Origin: Candidatus Parvarchaeum sp.
Lineage (GTDB): Archaea > Nanobdellota > Nanobdellia > Parvarchaeales > Parvarchaeaceae
Length of the DNA stretch: 64,000 nucleotides
Assembly: GCA_049965555.1 (NCBI GenBank)
Contig: JBMFWF010000002.1
Location: 26,751-90,750, forward strand
Direction of reading: 5' to 3'
A program made the translations under genes and the position numbers. Below the pieces are notes generated by a model. It had not been told where the DNA came from, did no database searches, and was given only the letters and a program-made list of their open reading frames with translations. Shown here in pieces: positions 16,544-25,655 of this stretch (its first letter is position 1; every line of letters starts with the position of its first letter).

Positions 16544-18451
16544 ATGAAAATTATATACAACGGAAAGGAAAGAGAGTTCAAGGACGGAGAAAAAGCTGCA
16601 GATATCGCAAAGGAATTAAACGCTCCTAAAGATATAATTGTGGCAGAGATAAATAACCGGCTAATAGATTTGTCTGCAGAAGTAAAAGAAGATGGCGAAA
16701 TAAAATTCTTCACTTTCAACGATGATATTGGGAAGAAGGTCTTCTGGCACTCATCCGCACATATTCTTGCAGCTGCGGTAAAAAGACTCTATCCAGAAGC
16801 AGTGCTTGGCATAGGTCCTGCAATAGATGAGGGTTTCTACTATGACATTTATAACCTTAAAGCGGGAGACAACGACCTAGAAGATATAGAGAAGGAGATG
16901 TATAAAATAATAAAAGAAAACCAAGCTTTTGAAAGGAGAGATATATCAAAAAAAGAAGCGAAGGAACTTCTAAAGGACAACAAATTCAAACTGGAAATAA
17001 TCGAAGAAGTAAACGGAAATCTAAGCATATACAAAAACGGAGAATTCTATGACCTGTGCAGAGGGCCTCATATCCCTTCTACTGGATATATAGGCGCAGT
17101 AAAACTTTTGAAAACTTCTGGAGCTTATTGGAGAGGAGACAGCAAAAGAGAGGTGATGACTAGAATATATGGTATTTCATTTCCTTCCAAGAAAGAACTT
17201 GATGAATACATAAAATTCTTAGAAGAAAAGGATAAACATGATAATAAAAGGATAGGCAAAGAATTAGAGTTATTTGAATTCATGGACGTTTCACCAGGTT
17301 CTCCTTTTATGCTTCCAAAAGGGACCATAATTTATAATGAACTTATAAAGCTTGCTAGAGAATACGATACGAAATATGATTATAAAGAAATCATAACTCC
17401 TATGATAGCAAAGATAGATTTATGGAAAATAAGCGGGCATTTTGATAAATACAAGCAAAATATGTTTGAAGTCAAGCCATTTGAGTCTGATGAAGAATAT
17501 GCACTTAAACCAATGAGCTGCCCATTTCACGTTCTTGTATTTAAATCAAAAACTAGAAGCTATAAAGAGCTTCCTTTAAGATTTGCAGAGCATGGCTTGG
17601 TACATAGATATGAATTAGAGGGCACATTAAACGGCCTTATGCGCACGAGATTACTGCAGCAAAATGATTCTCACATTTTTGTAACAGGAGAGCAAATAGA
17701 AGATGAAATAATATTTGAACTTAAAGAACTTAAAGAAATCTATGATATATTTAATCTTTCCCCGATATTCACAGTTGCAACTAGGCCAGATGAAAGAATC
17801 GGAGAAGATGAACTTTGGGACAAAGCAGAAACTGCGTTATTTAACGCATTGAAAAAAGGAGGATATAAATATACTATAAAGCCTAAGGATGGTGCATTCT
17901 ACGGCCCGAAAATAGACGTTTATGTCCTAGACTTCACTGGAAAACCGGAATCGGCTTATGCTGTCTCGACTATACAAGTCGATTTTAATTTAGCAAGAAG
18001 ATTTGATGCAACGTATGTGGGCCCAGACAATAAGGAGCATATACCAGTCGTTCTGCATAGGTCTATATTAGGTTCATTTGGTAGATTTATGGGTATAATC
18101 CTTGAGAATTCAGAGGGCAAATTGCCGGTATGGCTTTCACCTGTACAGGTTAAAGTGCTTACTATAACCGAGAGAAACAACAAATATGCAGATGAAATAA
18201 TAAGAAAACTTAAAGATAACGGCATAAGAGTAGAAAGTGACACTGAAAATGGCACGCTTGATTATAGAATAAGGAAAGCTCAGCTTGAAAAAGTTCCGTT
18301 CATGATCATTATAGGAGATAAAGAAGAAGAAAAGAAAACAATCGCAGTGAGAAATAGAAATGGGAAAACAAGATATAACGTAGACATAAATGAATTCATA
18401 AATGACATTTTAAATAATATAAAAAATAGAACAAAGTATGAAGAAGAATGA
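16544..18451 (+). CDS. thrS: Threonyl-tRNA synthetase, bacterial-type domain architecture
   Basis: TGS-like N-terminus, FWHSSAH and DLCRGPH editing motifs, LKPMSCP, GAFYGPKID, TIQVDF, HRSILGS, WLSPVQV. Confidence 0.97.
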   Translation: MKIIYNGKEREFKDGEKAADIAKELNAPKDIIVAEINNRLIDLSAEVKEDGEIKFFTFNDDIGKKVFWHSSAHILAAAVKRLYPEAVLGIGPAIDEGFYYDIYNLKAGDNDLEDIEKEMYKIIKENQAFERRDISKKEAKELLKDNKFKLEIIEEVNGNLSIYKNGEFYDLCRGPHIPSTGYIGAVKLLKTSGAYWRGDSKREVMTRIYGISFPSKKELDEYIKFLEEKDKHDNKRIGKELELFEFMDVSPGSPFMLPKGTIIYNELIKLAREYDTKYDYKEIITPMIAKIDLWKISGHFDKYKQNMFEVKPFESDEEYALKPMSCPFHVLVFKSKTRSYKELPLRFAEHGLVHRYELEGTLNGLMRTRLLQQNDSHIFVTGEQIEDEIIFELKELKEIYDIFNLSPIFTVATRPDERIGEDELWDKAETALFNALKKGGYKYTIKPKDGAFYGPKIDVYVLDFTGKPESAYAVSTIQVDFNLARRFDATYVGPDNKEHIPVVLHRSILGSFGRFMGIILENSEGKLPVWLSPVQVKVLTITERNNKYADEIIRKLKDNGIRVESDTENGTLDYRIRKAQLEKVPFMIIIGDKEEEKKTIAVRNRNGKTRYNVDINEFINDILNNIKNRTKYEEE

Positions 18452-20244: not shown

Positions 20245-20652
20245 TTATTGACTGTCCAGCATAGAAATTAACTCTTTTACCTTAGCATAGATAGTTTCAA
20301 TTATTTTGGTTTTGTCCTCAACCGAAAGTCCTTCCAATGTAGGTATATACCAGTGCTCAGCCTTTTTTATATACTCATCAGGTATAAGTATACAGTCATT
20401 TGGATCACAAACAATTATTATTTTATCAGCCATTTTTAACATTTCATTGTTGGGTGCTTTGGGAAATTGATTACTCATATCTACATCAAATTTTTCCCGC
20501 ATTAATTTTATATCTGAACTGTCTATCCCTGTACCAACAGAACTCCCTGCGGCACTTATTGCTTTATGCTTTTTCGTAAGCTTATTAAATAAAGCTTCCG
20601 CGATCTGGCTTCTGCTATTGTTATATTTACAGATAAAAAGCACAACAGACAT
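20245..20652 (-). CDS. arsC: Low-molecular-weight phosphatase / thioredoxin-type arsenate reductase family protein
   Basis: VLFICKYNNSRSQIAEA (Cx5R), SAAG, ADKIIIVCDPNDC, EHW. Confidence 0.8.
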   Translation of the reverse strand: MSVVLFICKYNNSRSQIAEALFNKLTKKHKAISAAGSSVGTGIDSSDIKLMREKFDVDMSNQFPKAPNNEMLKMADKIIIVCDPNDCILIPDEYIKKAEHWYIPTLEGLSVEDKTKIIETIYAKVKELISMLDSQ

Positions 20653-20664
20653 AAAGAGACTTAT

Positions 20665-21039
20665 TCACTGCTTCATTATGCCGGCAATTTCACTTGAAGC
20701 TTTAGAAGACTCCAAAAGAATTAAACCATAATTTGTGTTAGGATCGATCATTATTGTAAGTATTGCATCGGTTCCTGCTTGTACTGCTACAACCCTTATG
20801 TCCTTTGACTCTGCAACTACCCTTTCTAAAGTATTTTTAGCACCAAGAGACTTAATGGCCGTTTCTGCTGAACCTACCATTGAAGCCAGCATCGCAGCAA
20901 AAGTGTTCGGATCTACATCTTCAGGCATCAAAGAGACCATAGGTAAACCATTAGCAGATATAACAGCAGATGCCTTTATTCCGCCGACAGTACTTAATCT
21001 TTGTAAAACACTTTTTAATTGTTCCGATTTTGTAGCCAT
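20665..21039 (-). CDS. Roadblock/LC7 (MglB-like) protein
   Basis: GIKASAVISANGLPMVS, FAAMLASMVGSAE, LERVVAES, NYGLILLE. Confidence 0.92.
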   Translation of the reverse strand: MATKSEQLKSVLQRLSTVGGIKASAVISANGLPMVSLMPEDVDPNTFAAMLASMVGSAETAIKSLGAKNTLERVVAESKDIRVVAVQAGTDAILTIMIDPNTNYGLILLESSKASSEIAGIMKQ

Positions 21040-21069
21040 ATTTAATTTACGATTTCTTTATTTAAATAA

Positions 21070-22314
21070 TTATGTTAACTGCTTAAACAAAGCAGATAAA
21101 GCCTCGTCTATTCCCGCCTCCTTTAATTTTGTTGGCTCGTTTGGATCTACTTTTGATAGGTCCTCAGCAACTGTCTGCACTAGTGCTATTGCAGAATCCA
21201 AGTGCAACTTTTCTCTTATTTCTTCTTTTTTAAGTGCTCCCTGGAGATCAGCTTTATTTGCAATAACTACTACTGGCAAACCATAAGTTTCTGTCTTCCT
21301 AAGCATTTCAACTGCTCTTGGGAACTGTTCTGGCTTGGTTGAGTCTACTACTAGGAATACACCGATTGCTTCTCCGCCTAGCATTTTAAGTAATGGATCA
21401 AATCTTTCCTGTCCAGGCGTTCCAAACAAATCTGCACGATAACCCTGAAAATCTACTGTTCCATGATCCAAAGCTATCGTTCCGCCAAGCTTATCTACAC
21501 TTACAGCATTCTTAGAGGCACTGTGTATGAATGAACTTTTTCCAGCATCTGTCGGCCCAGTAACTAGAATCTTGGGGAAGTAAACCTTTATTCCTCCCGG
21601 CTTTATTGCTTTGAACAGCACAGATGAAAATGTCTGTTGCTTTTCTTCAACCCAATCGCACTTTAATACCGCAAAATACTGCCCGAAAATCACGCGTTTT
21701 TCTATTCCCTTGACCTCTATAGTTGAATTTACATTTGAAAGCAGTTTATCTACATTTTGTTTTTCGTAGCCCCAATCTGTGAAAAGAAGCACTGCTGCAG
21801 AGTCCTTGCTTACAACCTCTTGTTTTACATCATTCATAAATGAAGTAGCAAATGAAAAATTAAAGAAATCAGCAAGCAGTGAAAATGAATCTATTACAAG
21901 CAGTCCGTACCCATTACCAATCTCTTTGAGGACTTTTGTCTTTACTTCTTCCTTATCATAAGGATTGCTTATAACCTTTATATGATCCGTTTCATCTGAT
22001 TTTATGCCGGTAATCCCACTGTAAGCATCTATTATAAATAAATTGTCATTGGCTGGAAAGTCATATTCTTTCATGTCTGTAAGATAAGACTGTGGAGATG
22101 TTCTGTTAAGAAATACGAGAACTTTTACTCCAGAGGTTATATTCTTATGTATTATTTGATATCCAAACACTTCATTTCCCACGGAGGGCGAAGCAGATAT
22201 CAATACAACCTTTTTAGAAGGTATTCCCTTAAGCTGCTCATCTAACTTAGCTATTCCAAAATAAGGATCAAAATCCTTATCTGGCACACCGTCTAATCCT
22301 TTAAACTCTACCAT
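21070..22314 (-). CDS. Fusion: degenerate KaiC/RAD55-like domain plus C-terminal MglA-like small GTPase
   Basis: N-term FGIAKLDEQLKGIP..VVLISASPSVGNE and LLVIDSFS; C-term G1 GPTDAGKS, G2 TIALD, G3 FGTPGQERF, G4 NKAD. Confidence 0.88.
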   Translation of the reverse strand: MVEFKGLDGVPDKDFDPYFGIAKLDEQLKGIPSKKVVLISASPSVGNEVFGYQIIHKNITSGVKVLVFLNRTSPQSYLTDMKEYDFPANDNLFIIDAYSGITGIKSDETDHIKVISNPYDKEEVKTKVLKEIGNGYGLLVIDSFSLLADFFNFSFATSFMNDVKQEVVSKDSAAVLLFTDWGYEKQNVDKLLSNVNSTIEVKGIEKRVIFGQYFAVLKCDWVEEKQQTFSSVLFKAIKPGGIKVYFPKILVTGPTDAGKSSFIHSASKNAVSVDKLGGTIALDHGTVDFQGYRADLFGTPGQERFDPLLKMLGGEAIGVFLVVDSTKPEQFPRAVEMLRKTETYGLPVVVIANKADLQGALKKEEIREKLHLDSAIALVQTVAEDLSKVDPNEPTKLKEAGIDEALSALFKQLT

Positions 22315-22350
22315 ATAGTAAAATTATATCAATTATCGCTTTTAAATATA

Positions 22351-23019
22351 TCATTCGAGCTCCTTAAAATCAAGTACTTCCTTGCTTGTGCCTGAAAGCC
22401 TGAAATACCTTTTTCCTCCATCAAGCTTTAAATCGATTATTGCGTCAGAAAGATTTTTTATGGTTTCTATAACTTCAGGAGGATGCATCGCTATGTCAAT
22501 TGAAAATATTATGGTAACTCCTGCTAATTTGGCTTTACCACAAACGAACTGTAGAAAGCGGTACACTGTTACTGGATTATTATATATCAATAGATTTGAA
22601 AGATTGTCAAAGATGTTTATTACCGGCTTTGCATCCTTTACAAAATCGCTATTCGTACTTGATAATGAAACTGATAAACCTGTCAAATCCAATGGCCCGT
22701 TTAATATTTTTGCATAGGAATTGTCAGTAGCACTGGGTGAGTTCGTCCTGCTAAAATCATCCAATATCTTAAAATTTTCTCCAAGGTAAGGATTTATGTT
22801 TATTCCTCTGGAGTTGAATTCATTTATCAAGTCGGAGTAAGACTTGGAAGTCAGCACATAAACTATTGCATTTTTTGACGCAAGAGCGGATTGAACGACT
22901 TTATATATAAACAGCTCTTTTCCTGATTCTTTATTTCCAAAAATAGAGTATACCTTCCTGTAATCCAAGCCATTAGTAAGCTCATCAAAGTTCTTAAAAC
23001 CAGTTTTTATTCCTTCCAT
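22351..23019 (-). CDS. KaiC/RAD55-like RecA-fold protein with altered Walker A
   Basis: IKTGFKNFDELTNGL, GNKESGKE, IFDNLSNLL, LSDAIIDL. Confidence 0.85.
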   Translation of the reverse strand: MEGIKTGFKNFDELTNGLDYRKVYSIFGNKESGKELFIYKVVQSALASKNAIVYVLTSKSYSDLINEFNSRGININPYLGENFKILDDFSRTNSPSATDNSYAKILNGPLDLTGLSVSLSSTNSDFVKDAKPVINIFDNLSNLLIYNNPVTVYRFLQFVCGKAKLAGVTIIFSIDIAMHPPEVIETIKNLSDAIIDLKLDGGKRYFRLSGTSKEVLDFKELE

Positions 23020-23020
23020 A

Positions 23021-23632
23021 TCAAACCAACTTTACCTTCTTTGATTTTATTCCCATAGGGGAACCATCAACCTTCATTAATATATCAACGGTCAATTGAT
23101 CATCTTGCTTTAAAAAGGTTATCTCCTCAAGCAAAGACTCATTTGCCGGCATATTAACGAATGGAAAAAGATAATTTGAAAGACTTTTAAAAAGCTCTTT
23201 CTTACCGTTCTTTTTCAACATTATAGACAAATTATCACTCATATCTTCGGTTTCAACTATCTTAAAGTAATCGGTGTCAATCACTATATCTGTTATGCTG
23301 TCATGCGGCAAGCCCTTAAGATCTTCTATTACTGGGTCAATGTTTTCATCAGCGCCGAATTGTTTTGAAACGGATTTCTGCTGGTTGTTCTCTATAAAAT
23401 CAATGGTTAACTTCACAGCCTTCACAAGGAAAAGCCTCAGCAGGATATTGTATATCTTATATACCTTTATGCTTAGCGGATGCTGCGCTTTTATCTTTAT
23501 AACACCTTCTTTGTATTCAAGGCTTATCGATACTTTTTTGTAGGCTATCAAACCACTTATCTTTGAAAGTGGTGCGTTCTCGTCATAAAAGCTCTTTAGT
23601 TCATTTATTGCGTCAAAAATATCGATTTCCAT
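23021..23632 (-). CDS. Hypothetical protein, first gene of the KaiC-GTPase-Roadblock operon
   Basis: 203-aa ORF; stop codon 1 nt before the start of the KaiC-like gene. Confidence 0.7.
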   Translation of the reverse strand: MEIDIFDAINELKSFYDENAPLSKISGLIAYKKVSISLEYKEGVIKIKAQHPLSIKVYKIYNILLRLFLVKAVKLTIDFIENNQQKSVSKQFGADENIDPVIEDLKGLPHDSITDIVIDTDYFKIVETEDMSDNLSIMLKKNGKKELFKSLSNYLFPFVNMPANESLLEEITFLKQDDQLTVDILMKVDGSPMGIKSKKVKLV

Positions 23633-23670
23633 GCTATATAATATACATTAAAGAATTTAAAATTGACATT

Positions 23671-24306: not shown

Positions 24307-24342
24307 TTACTAAAAACAATGTTGATAAATAAAAAGCTTTGT

Positions 24343-24711
24343 TTAAGAATAACCTGCAGTTACGCAATTGCTGTAACCCATAGTAGTTCCATTTGATAAA
24401 ACTACCGTAGTAGTATTAGTTCCAGGTGGAACTGCTAAATCTGAATAACAATGATAGACACCTGGACCGGAGGGATTAGCAACAGTCTGAGAGCACCATT
24501 GCTGGAAACCTAAACTTGCTGGTACGGTAGTAGAGTAAGTTGAGCATGTCGAAGAAAATGCTGATAACGTAGAACTGGATGGAGAGGCTGCACCCAAGCC
24601 CTTGAAGCCACCTAATACAAATGTGATTAATAAGACAAGTATAAGCAAGCCCACAGCAATAAGTATTATTGTATTGATGGGCAGGCCCTGTGCTCTTTTA
24701 TTTGAAATCAT
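24343..24711 (-). CDS. Type IV pilin-like protein with class III signal peptide
   Basis: NKRA|QGLPINTIILIAVGLLILVLLITF; S/T-rich body with four Cys. Confidence 0.75.
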   Translation of the reverse strand: MISNKRAQGLPINTIILIAVGLLILVLLITFVLGGFKGLGAASPSSSTLSAFSSTCSTYSTTVPASLGFQQWCSQTVANPSGPGVYHCYSDLAVPPGTNTTTVVLSNGTTMGYSNCVTAGYS

Positions 24712-24850: not shown

Positions 24851-25123
24851 ATGTATTTGAGCAGGCTAGTTATAGATGCAGTAAAACCTATCGGTGAATA
24901 TAGTATAATCGACCTTGCAAACGATATAGCCAAACACGTAAGAAACGGAGAGGTTTTCATAAAGGTTGTAGAAGTGGATATTCATACAGAAGGCTTAAAA
25001 GTGGTCATTGAAGGCTCAAAAATAAACTTCGAAGGCATACAAAAAGCCTTGAAGGATAGGGGTGCAGTGATAAACAGTCTAGATGAAGCCACAGTAAGTT
25101 CTAATGGAAAGAGCAAAAAGTAG
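24851..25123 (+). CDS. DUF211-family protein
   Basis: RLVIDAVKP, VVEVD..TE, IEG..INF, GAVINSLDE. Confidence 0.85.
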   Translation: MYLSRLVIDAVKPIGEYSIIDLANDIAKHVRNGEVFIKVVEVDIHTEGLKVVIEGSKINFEGIQKALKDRGAVINSLDEATVSSNGKSKK

Positions 25124-25655
25124 GTATGTAATACTGGGCCTAAGCGACGGATTATTCCTTGGCTTAGGCATATCACTAGGTATTTCAGTTTTCCACAGCT
25201 ATCAGCTTACATTTGCATCCATCTTATTAGTAGGCGTGAGCGGTTCTCTTTCCAATTTCTTTTCCGCTTATAATGCTGAAAATTTTGTGTTGGGTCAGCA
25301 AATGAAGGAATATCGAAAAATACTTTTTGCAAAGGAATATGACCCAAAAAAGATCACAAAACTAAAAAAAGCTAAAAACCTTAAATATGCTGAAATAGGT
25401 TTTCTTTCAACATTACTTGGCAGTATTATAGTACTTTTGCCTTATTTGGTTTACTATTCATTAAATGAGAAGCAAAGCGTTACCACTAGCATCATTTCAC
25501 TTATTCTAAGTTTGATAATACTTGCATTTATAGGAAGCTACTCGCAGGAAGAAAATGCGCAAAAAATAAAGGAGGGACTAAAAACGGCAGGTATAGGACT
25601 TCTTATCGCTGTGATAAGCGCCTTTTTAGGCGTATTGATAAATTTGTTTATTTAG
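25104..25655 (+). CDS. VIT1/CCC1-like membrane protein (TIGR00267-like)
   Basis: RYVILGLSDG, SNFFSAYNAE, five TM helices; usual partner of DUF211. Confidence 0.75.
   Translation: MERAKSRYVILGLSDGLFLGLGISLGISVFHSYQLTFASILLVGVSGSLSNFFSAYNAENFVLGQQMKEYRKILFAKEYDPKKITKLKKAKNLKYAEIGFLSTLLGSIIVLLPYLVYYSLNEKQSVTTSIISLILSLIILAFIGSYSQEENAQKIKEGLKTAGIGLLIAVISAFLGVLINLFI

Follow-up and report, generated by a model that had tools for sequence, protein, structure and literature searches.

A 64,000-nucleotide stretch of the genome of Candidatus Parvarchaeum sp. (GenBank assembly GCA_049965555.1, contig JBMFWF010000002.1, positions 26,751 to 90,750; hereafter the window, with positions counted from its first letter) carries on its minus strand a three-gene module, K-F-R, that is conserved across many archaeal orders and is not special to this genome. 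The module consists of a KaiC-like protein with degenerate catalytic motifs (K), a fusion of an inactivated KaiC-like domain to a small GTPase (F) and a Roadblock/LC7 protein (R), and is accompanied in the window by an orphan protein (U). We interpret K-F-R as a G-protein switch under Roadblock control, carried by a pseudo-KaiC scaffold, in which K would be a nucleotide-binding, non-catalytic partner, and we assign this reading, which rests on analogy, a probability of roughly 60%. The genes and domains concerned are as follows.

23021..23632, minus strand: U, orphan protein, 203 amino acids (aa), whose stop lies 1 nucleotide (nt) before the start of K
22351..23019, minus strand: K, stand-alone single-domain KaiC-like protein, 222 aa
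21070..22314, minus strand: F, KaiC-like::small-GTPase fusion, 414 aa
21580..22257, minus strand: N-terminal inactivated KaiC-like domain of F, residues ~20-245, matching PF06745 at 29.8 bits
21073..21579, minus strand: C-terminal small GTPase domain of F, residues 246-414, with Arf, Ras and small_GTP matches
20665..21039, minus strand: R, Roadblock/LC7 (MglB-like) protein, 124 aa, matching PF03259 at 52.7 bits

In the list of open reading frames (ORFs) of the window, the four genes are co-directional in the order U-K-F-R and separated by gaps of 1, 36 and 30 nt. This close packing, together with every motif quoted in a preliminary description of the window, was reproduced from the ORF list and its translations. 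The genome itself (784 kb in 28 contigs, 92% complete, 35% G+C) encodes a single Roadblock protein and a single GTPase of the F type, and three canonical KaiC paralogues are encoded elsewhere in it.

An inactivated KaiC-like domain is joined, rigidly in the model, to a small GTPase

Residues 20-245 of F match PF06745 above the Pfam cut-off of 26.6 bits, and residues 247-410 match Arf (PF00025, 44.7 bits; cut-off 22.3) and Ras (34.8 bits) in Pfam and small_GTP (TIGR00231, 63.5 bits; cut-off 42.5) in NCBIfam. The best Foldseek matches of the AlphaFold2 model of F (predicted local distance difference test score, pLDDT, 82.9; predicted template-modelling score, pTM, 0.76) were FlaH (4yds), PH0284 (2dr3) and SSO2452 (2w0m), with target template-modelling (TM) scores of 0.74-0.78, as well as KaiC, and the N-terminal domain can therefore be assigned a RecA/KaiC fold. 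The domain assignments proposed earlier for K, F and R are thus upheld by Pfam and NCBIfam, and that of the F N-terminal domain by Foldseek as well. In the same model the fusion is rigid, with one continuous strand (residues 241-252) crossing the domain junction, the sequence of which, KPGGIKVY-PKILVTGP, is nearly invariant in 20 diverse homologues.

The P-loop of the N-terminal domain reads ASPSVGNE and lacks the lysine. None of 80 F sequences (79 loci and the window) has lysine at the Walker A Lys position, the region reading xxPGVExx in the 20 diverse homologues, and Asn-Arg occupies the place that aligns, by eye, with the catalytic Glu-Glu pair. The Walker A pattern of active KaiC/RecA-like enzymes, GxxxxGK[ST], is found in neither of the two KaiC-like units of the window, K and the N-terminal domain of F. 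The GTPase domain of the window F carries the motifs G1 GPTDAGKS, G2 GGT(IALD), G3 GTPGQ (within FGTPGQERF) and G4 NKAD; in all 20 diverse homologues G1 GPxxAGKS, the G2 Thr, G3 GTPGQERFDP and G4 ANKAD are invariant, including residues G298, T299, P300, G301 and Q302.

Single in-frame stops interrupt the fusion genes of three relatives (G023:C25:19136-20329, TGA; G016:C7:160271-161470, TAA; G185:C1:113137-114351, TAA), which could be pseudogenes or assembly errors.

The partner K is a crippled KaiC-like protein that keeps its P-loop lysine

K matches PF06745 at 42.4 bits and also DUF7504 in Pfam, and the profile of its family matches the structures of KaiC, PH0284 and FlaH with E-values of 1e-28 to 1e-11. 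K is not a bona fide circadian KaiC, scoring 28.3 bits against a cut-off of 408 for NF006799 and having a single domain in its 222 aa. The Walker A motif of K, GNKESGKE, keeps the Lys and has Glu for the Ser/Thr, the Walker B Asp is present, and the catalytic Glu-Glu pair is replaced by Ser-Lys. The Walker A Lys hardly varies across the aligned K family; 54 of the 84 rows have Glu or Asp directly after it, and Archaeoglobaceae, Hydrothermarchaeales and Methanobacterium have Ser. No K adjacent to F has the Glu-Glu pair, Arg-Glu, Lys-Asp or Ser-Lys being found instead, and the window K (GKE, Walker B Asp, Ser-Lys) represents the most degenerate type. Nine unrelated KaiC paralogues encoded in the same loci have GK[ST], the Asp and the Glu-Glu pair intact, providing an internal control for the degeneration of K. 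The claim that both KaiC domains are inactive thus holds as far as degenerate catalytic motifs in both are concerned, but for K the label is too simple: with its P-loop lysine retained, it may still be able to bind nucleotide.

K, F and R stay linked across archaeal orders

We surveyed 79 fetched F loci, in which ORFs were called and then searched with iterated profiles, and scored a gene as adjacent to F if it lay within 100 nt on the same strand. R was adjacent to F in 71 of these loci, K in 63, and both in 59, confirming that GTPase and Roadblock are paired and that the genes occur together in relatives, as proposed; K and R were both present somewhere in the locus in 69/79. Some of the misses are contig ends (L008, L018), and in the Altiarchaeota and some Woesearchaeota loci K is missing from the fetched stretch or lies 1.6-4.4 kb away. 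The gene order is R, F, K in Thermoplasmata and Methanobacterium, with the genes still together. Because it recurs across archaeal orders, the arrangement is far beyond what chance would produce.

A protein search with F yielded 715 matches at E <= 1e-3 among 7,999 scored candidates. Among the best 120 of these, almost all are 380-426 aa long and cover 84-100% of the query, apart from two partial sequences, one of 258 aa (62% covered) and one of 346 aa, and their sources are Parvarchaeota, Altiarchaeales, Nanoarchaeota, Methanoperedens, ANME-2 and Methanosarcinales. Further lineages represented among the 79 retained loci are Archaeoglobaceae, Methanocellales, Thermoplasmata, Hydrothermarchaeales, Woesearchaeota and Methanobacterium. 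Furthermore, a tblastn scan of species genomes gave at least 569 confirmed stretches, that is, at least 569 species' genomes with a relative of F, not all of which need carry the fusion, since the scan patterns sit in the GTPase domain. Several long tblastn matches of ~1,800 nt were considered as possible inteins or insertions and rejected, as the match extends into the upstream K homologue and the F ORFs at these places measure 389-395 aa.

Closer to the window, F is present in 35/40 genomes of the order, including 9/10 high-quality ones. In a sample of the phylum, 11/301 genomes match F at E <= 1e-20, 7 of them at full length, 4 of which belong to the same genus. The argument that a module kept in a reduced genome must be important is hence supported within the order but not by the phylum sample.

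TATA-like A/T-rich elements (TTTAAA, TATATTTAAAA or similar) occur in the spacers before R, F and U, ending ~17-27 nt upstream of the ATG (spacers inspected: 20653-20664, 21040-21069, 22315-22350, 23633-23670 and 24307-24342 of the window). Given these elements, the genes may be transcribed separately as leaderless mRNAs and not as one operon. Matches of this kind are common at 35% G+C.

The Roadblock protein and the GTPase switch changed together in Parvarchaeales

R matches Robl_LC7 (PF03259) well above the cut-off of 23 bits, compared with 15.5 bits against a cut-off of 200 for the MglB equivalog NF052242; its closest solved sequence is the Roadblock protein 9jue_D (9e-13), with the MglB 6h5b_B at 6e-4. 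The R family shares the motif S-R-D-G-L, in which the Arg is present in 75 of 86 rows, the Asp in 79 and the Gly in all 86. On the GTPase side, the switch-I G2 motif has Gly (G-G-T), and no Arg, in the window and all 8 Parvarchaeota loci; the remaining loci have G-T-T, except two with another residue before T-T. G-T-T is combined with R-D-G in the Roadblock protein in 66 of 76 F-R pairs. All 8 Parvarchaeota pairs, the window included, instead combine G-G-T with A, S or V followed by N or D, a combination seen in 0/68 other pairs.

Judged from these alignments, the Parvarchaeales copy of K-F-R is a derived one, with a Roadblock protein that has shed the Arg-Asp pair and a GTPase that has shed the switch-I Thr. 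As the correlated changes are confined to one clade, they are probably a single event. The positions involved in R and G2 may be contact residues between GTPase and Roadblock, a lead provided by one clade. The Parvarchaeales copy is thereby a natural variant without conserved residues at the presumed GTPase-Roadblock interface, and it marks positions worth mutating.

U is a lineage-specific neighbour of K

The preliminary description had cast U as the input of the module, a role that its distribution does not support. U matches no Pfam or NCBIfam family above cut-off, and every one of its 35 homologues with a source-given name is from Parvarchaeota; a profile search of 1.84 billion representatives returned only 10 clusters. 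It is present in 8 of the 79 F loci, and with a wider profile U-like genes were detected in 12/401 genomes of the phylum. We fetched five loci of U-like genes from other Nanoarchaeota-type lineages:

L105 5809-6408: U-like gene
L106 5722-6315: U-like gene
L107 7067-7693: U-like gene
L108 324-950: U-like gene
L100 736-1320: U-like gene

None of these five non-Parvarchaeales loci has K, F or R within ~5 kb of the U-like gene, and in all five a thymidylate kinase gene (PF02223, E 1e-36 to 1e-47) lies next to it or one gene away. U as a component of the module was accordingly rejected as the default reading: since its relatives elsewhere adjoin thymidylate kinase genes without the module, it is not a defining part. 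U belongs to a small DPANN family and, in Parvarchaeales, is a lineage-specific neighbour of K and probably not a core component.

Three of the neighbouring kinases lack the P-loop Lys (GAGIS, GAGLS and GAGCE, by eye), the other two reading GCGKG and GSGKT. In view of those three, U may be a more general companion of P-loop proteins whose Walker A motif is unusual. The thymidylate kinase genes of the window genome sit on contigs other than that of U; at G000:C7:34675-35828 two such genes stand in tandem (146.6 and 102.9 bits), and a third is on C10.

The predicted structure of U is confident and of the alpha/beta type (pLDDT 91.7, pTM 0.85). The best Foldseek match in the PDB had an E-value of 2.7e-3 and a TM below 0.2; the highest Z in VIA-align over 48,161 chains was 7.0, for a de novo designed protein, and none reached 8; BFVD gave a best E of 1.7e-3 and the ESM Atlas no usable match, a lack of matches that does not show a new fold. 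A complex prediction of F, K and U, run without controls, scored U as partner at 0.00 against a mark of 0.32 and weighs neither way.

Neighbouring genes

Around the four genes the window carries three further minus-strand genes that were followed in relatives:

24343..24711, minus strand: pilin-like protein, 122 aa, N-terminus (K/R)(K/R)(A/G)QGLPINTIILIA followed by a hydrophobic helix
23671..24306, minus strand: 211-aa protein, no Pfam family, a single hydrophobic segment at the N-terminus
20245..20652, minus strand: LMWPc-fold protein, PF01451 46.4 bits, CX5R motif, 12 nt downstream of R

The pilin-like protein matches no Pfam or NCBIfam family, and its N-terminus would be a class III signal peptide. 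Homologues of the 211-aa protein were found in the window and the 8 Parvarchaeota loci only. The LMWPc-fold protein has homologues in five sources only (the window and 4 loci) and scores better with the ArsC model TIGR02691 (7e-13) than with Wzb (0.0067), all below cut-offs. We considered this gene as a phosphatase arm of the module and rejected it, as it is nearer to the ArsC models and conserved only in the closest relatives; an arsenate reductase-like protein would plausibly fit an acid-mine organism.

Divergently from the pilin-like gene, a DUF211 (COG1888) gene overlaps a gene for a VIT1-family membrane protein (24851-25655), a pair kept in the closest relatives (neighbour clusters 18 and 27). 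One family-less neighbour cluster (cluster 1, 17 loci) was treated as an artefact, as one of its ORFs runs on the strand opposite the Roadblock gene (in L063, for instance).

A model for K-F-R and its alternatives

In the model that we favour, a G-protein switch on a pseudo-KaiC scaffold, F would be a GTPase of the MglA Group 2-5 type (GTPGQ, no intrinsic arginine finger), the first strand of which continues directly from the last strand of the inactivated KaiC-like domain. A dimer of R would most likely bind the switch regions of the GTPase, as MglB and CvnB suggest, and so control GTP hydrolysis or nucleotide state. K, in turn, would most likely bind adenine nucleotide without turnover, and together with the dead KaiC-like domain of F it would probably assemble into a hetero-oligomer of the RecA type that would serve the G-protein as a scaffold or as a nucleotide or phosphorylation input. 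We infer from analogy the physical contacts, the GTPase-activating protein (GAP) activity, the nucleotide binding by K and the signalling role of the module. PAS/GAF histidine kinases and V4R proteins, encoded close to the module in 10 and 9 loci, respectively, fit a signalling role.

Several points weigh against this model. Every mechanistic step is drawn by analogy, and in the literature searched no member of the module has been studied. The GTPase had been described as MglA-like, which the GTPGQ of G3, as in Groups 2-5, bears out, but sequence comparison places it nearest to the solved Arf, Arl and Rab structures (E 4e-9 to 1e-6), with no MglA among the best 60 of 474 structure-sequence matches to the domain. 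Fusion to a KaiC-like domain is not obligatory for the GTPase family, since close unfused relatives occur (P0166 and P0175, 168-173 aa, 55-60% identical, on 19- and 53-kb contigs). The window R reads S-A-N-G-L, without the Arg and Asp conserved in its family, and the window GTPase has Gly where 66/76 F-R pairs have Thr, so the regulatory chemistry may differ or be weaker here. The Glu that replaces the Walker A Ser/Thr in K could prevent, and not permit, the binding of nucleotide or Mg. Finally, housekeeping genes (S19e, YhbY, CysRS, TruD, HhH-GPD, RNase HII), and not signalling genes, are most often found beside the module.

These neighbours could mean that the module serves ribosome biogenesis or translation instead of environmental signalling, which we regard as very improbable. 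The recurrent ones, S19e (18 loci), PDCD5-like dsDNA_bind (10), YhbY (3), CysRS (13), TruD (6) and ThrRS (5, and present in the window at 16544-18451), are clade-specific, with S19e and CysRS found in Methanoperedens and ANME-2 and ThrRS in Parvarchaeota, and they change between orders while K-F-R persists, a pattern of local synteny. K might also be alive, the acidic residue of GK[E/D] replacing Ser/Thr as Mg ligand with a compensating Walker B change from Asp to Asn in Methanosarcinales, so that a slow ATPase or autokinase would drive the GTPase as a KaiC-style phospho-timer. Consistent with this, 36 of the 54 Glu/Asp rows pair with Walker B Asn (K-E-N 23, K-D-N 13), all 14 GKS rows carry Walker B Asp or Glu, and there is hardly any variation at the Lys, the DLTG motif or Arg R154; however, the acidic-Asn pairing is confined to related clades and may thus reflect very few evolutionary events, the canonical Glu-Glu pair is absent from every adjacent K, and in the Parvarchaeota K, where GKE occurs alongside Walker B Asp, the last catalytic Glu is gone as well (Ser-Lys). 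On balance an active K seems improbable to us.

An output in Parvarchaeales through a type IV pilus-like filament for host attachment, which can coexist with a Roadblock-regulated switch, is somewhat better placed, though still unlikely. Here the FlaH-like K and F N-terminal domain would dock on an assembly ATPase (compare ArlH-ArlI) and the GTPase would gate assembly (compare Myxococcus MglA and SofG). FlaH 4yds is the top Foldseek match of F, and the best NCBIfam matches of K and of the F N-terminal domain are FlaH/ArlH models, but all fall far below cut-off: NF052589 gives 25.8 bits for K and 19.7 for F against 215, and PRK06067 gives 35.2 and 44.5 against 194. In the window and in 7 of the 8 loci from Parvarchaeota, the pilin-like gene, with a strictly conserved N-terminus, is the second gene upstream of U, in the same orientation. 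No pilus family is shared within 3 kb by three or more of the 71 remaining loci, and of 13/79 loci flagged by a crude screen for pilin N-termini only the 7 from Parvarchaeota look pilin-like. Genes for a prepilin peptidase, two T2SSE ATPases and T2SSF platform proteins are present in the genome, yet on contigs C3, C6 and C8, the module being on C2. Roadblock proteins are noted in archaeal type IV pilus loci by Makarova et al. 2016 (PMC4858521). Taken together, a pilus link in Parvarchaeales is possible on circumstantial grounds.

A more ambitious combination, in which a pseudo-KaiC hetero-oligomer senses energy or phosphorylation and signals through the rigid junction to the G-domain, and in which the module was rewired in Parvarchaeales (the Roadblock Arg-Asp, the switch-I Thr and the last catalytic Glu of K all lost) and recruited to the pilin cluster for host attachment, strikes us as decidedly unlikely. 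If true, the sensing hetero-oligomer and its G-domain would constitute a hybrid ATP-sensing, GTP-switching device unique to archaea.

Whatever its output, the module joins a GTPase-Roadblock pair to KaiC-like proteins, which have been proposed as archaeal signalling hubs. Such pairs act in polarity and motility in bacteria and in membrane traffic and nutrient signalling in eukaryotes, and their archaeal roles are almost unknown. One solved example would clarify both the regulation of archaeal G-proteins and the purpose of dead KaiC domains.

Comparison with known systems

A close bacterial counterpart is the MglA/MglB polarity switch of Myxococcus xanthus and Thermus thermophilus, in which, as here, the gene for a small Ras-superfamily GTPase stands beside that for a Roadblock-fold partner; K-F-R differs in including a second KaiC-like gene. 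According to the MglA census of Wuichet and Sogaard-Andersen 2014 (PMC4316618), MglA Groups 2-5 have a G3 of GTPGQ, a Thr where Group 1 has its arginine finger, and MglB partners with an Asp-Gly pair. F, with GTPGQ and no intrinsic Arg finger, and the R family, which keeps Asp-Gly, resemble these groups, unlike Group 1 with its TVPGQ and intrinsic Arg finger. That census covers single-domain proteins of 150-240 aa, leaves out those above 240 aa and gives no conserved neighbours for archaeal Group 4, so that F, at 414 aa and fused to an inactivated KaiC-like domain, falls outside its size range. According to the same study, the conservons of Streptomyces (CvnA-D) and the Mfp system of Mycobacterium, both MglA Group 2, likewise place a GTPGQ-type GTPase and a Roadblock protein in a conserved signalling cassette. 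Among the seven proteins around the locus, Pfam detected no CvnA-type histidine kinase or CvnC-type protein, and two KaiC-like units are found instead.

Inactivated KaiC domains ('iKaiC') have already been published by Makarova, Galperin and Koonin 2017, as cited in Galperin et al. 2018 (PMC5847659). ArlH/FlaH and, on that account, iKaiC proteins share with K-F-R the use of single RecA/KaiC-fold domains as signalling parts, some with inactivated ATPase motifs; the module differs from ArlH/FlaH in its scores far under the model cut-offs and in the lack of archaellum gene context in the window. Archaeal KaiC-like proteins fused to a small GTPase or obligately paired with Roadblock were not found in the literature searched, and neither was a KaiC-GTPase fusion with Roadblock, in a search that excluded the 2017 paper (mBio), which possibly describes one.

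The eukaryotic Arf/Arl GTPases provide a further comparison, Arf being the best-scoring Pfam family for the GTPase domain and Arf/Arl structures its nearest solved sequences. F departs from them in G3, where the conserved Asp of the Arf DxxGQ is Gly in 20/20 homologues although the PF00025 score exceeds its cut-off, and in having no free N-terminal amphipathic helix, because its N-terminus is the KaiC-like domain. In eukaryotes, Roadblock-domain proteins also form platforms for GTPases, as in Ragulator-Rag, and the use of Roadblock as a GTPase partner is what these platforms have in common with K-F-R.

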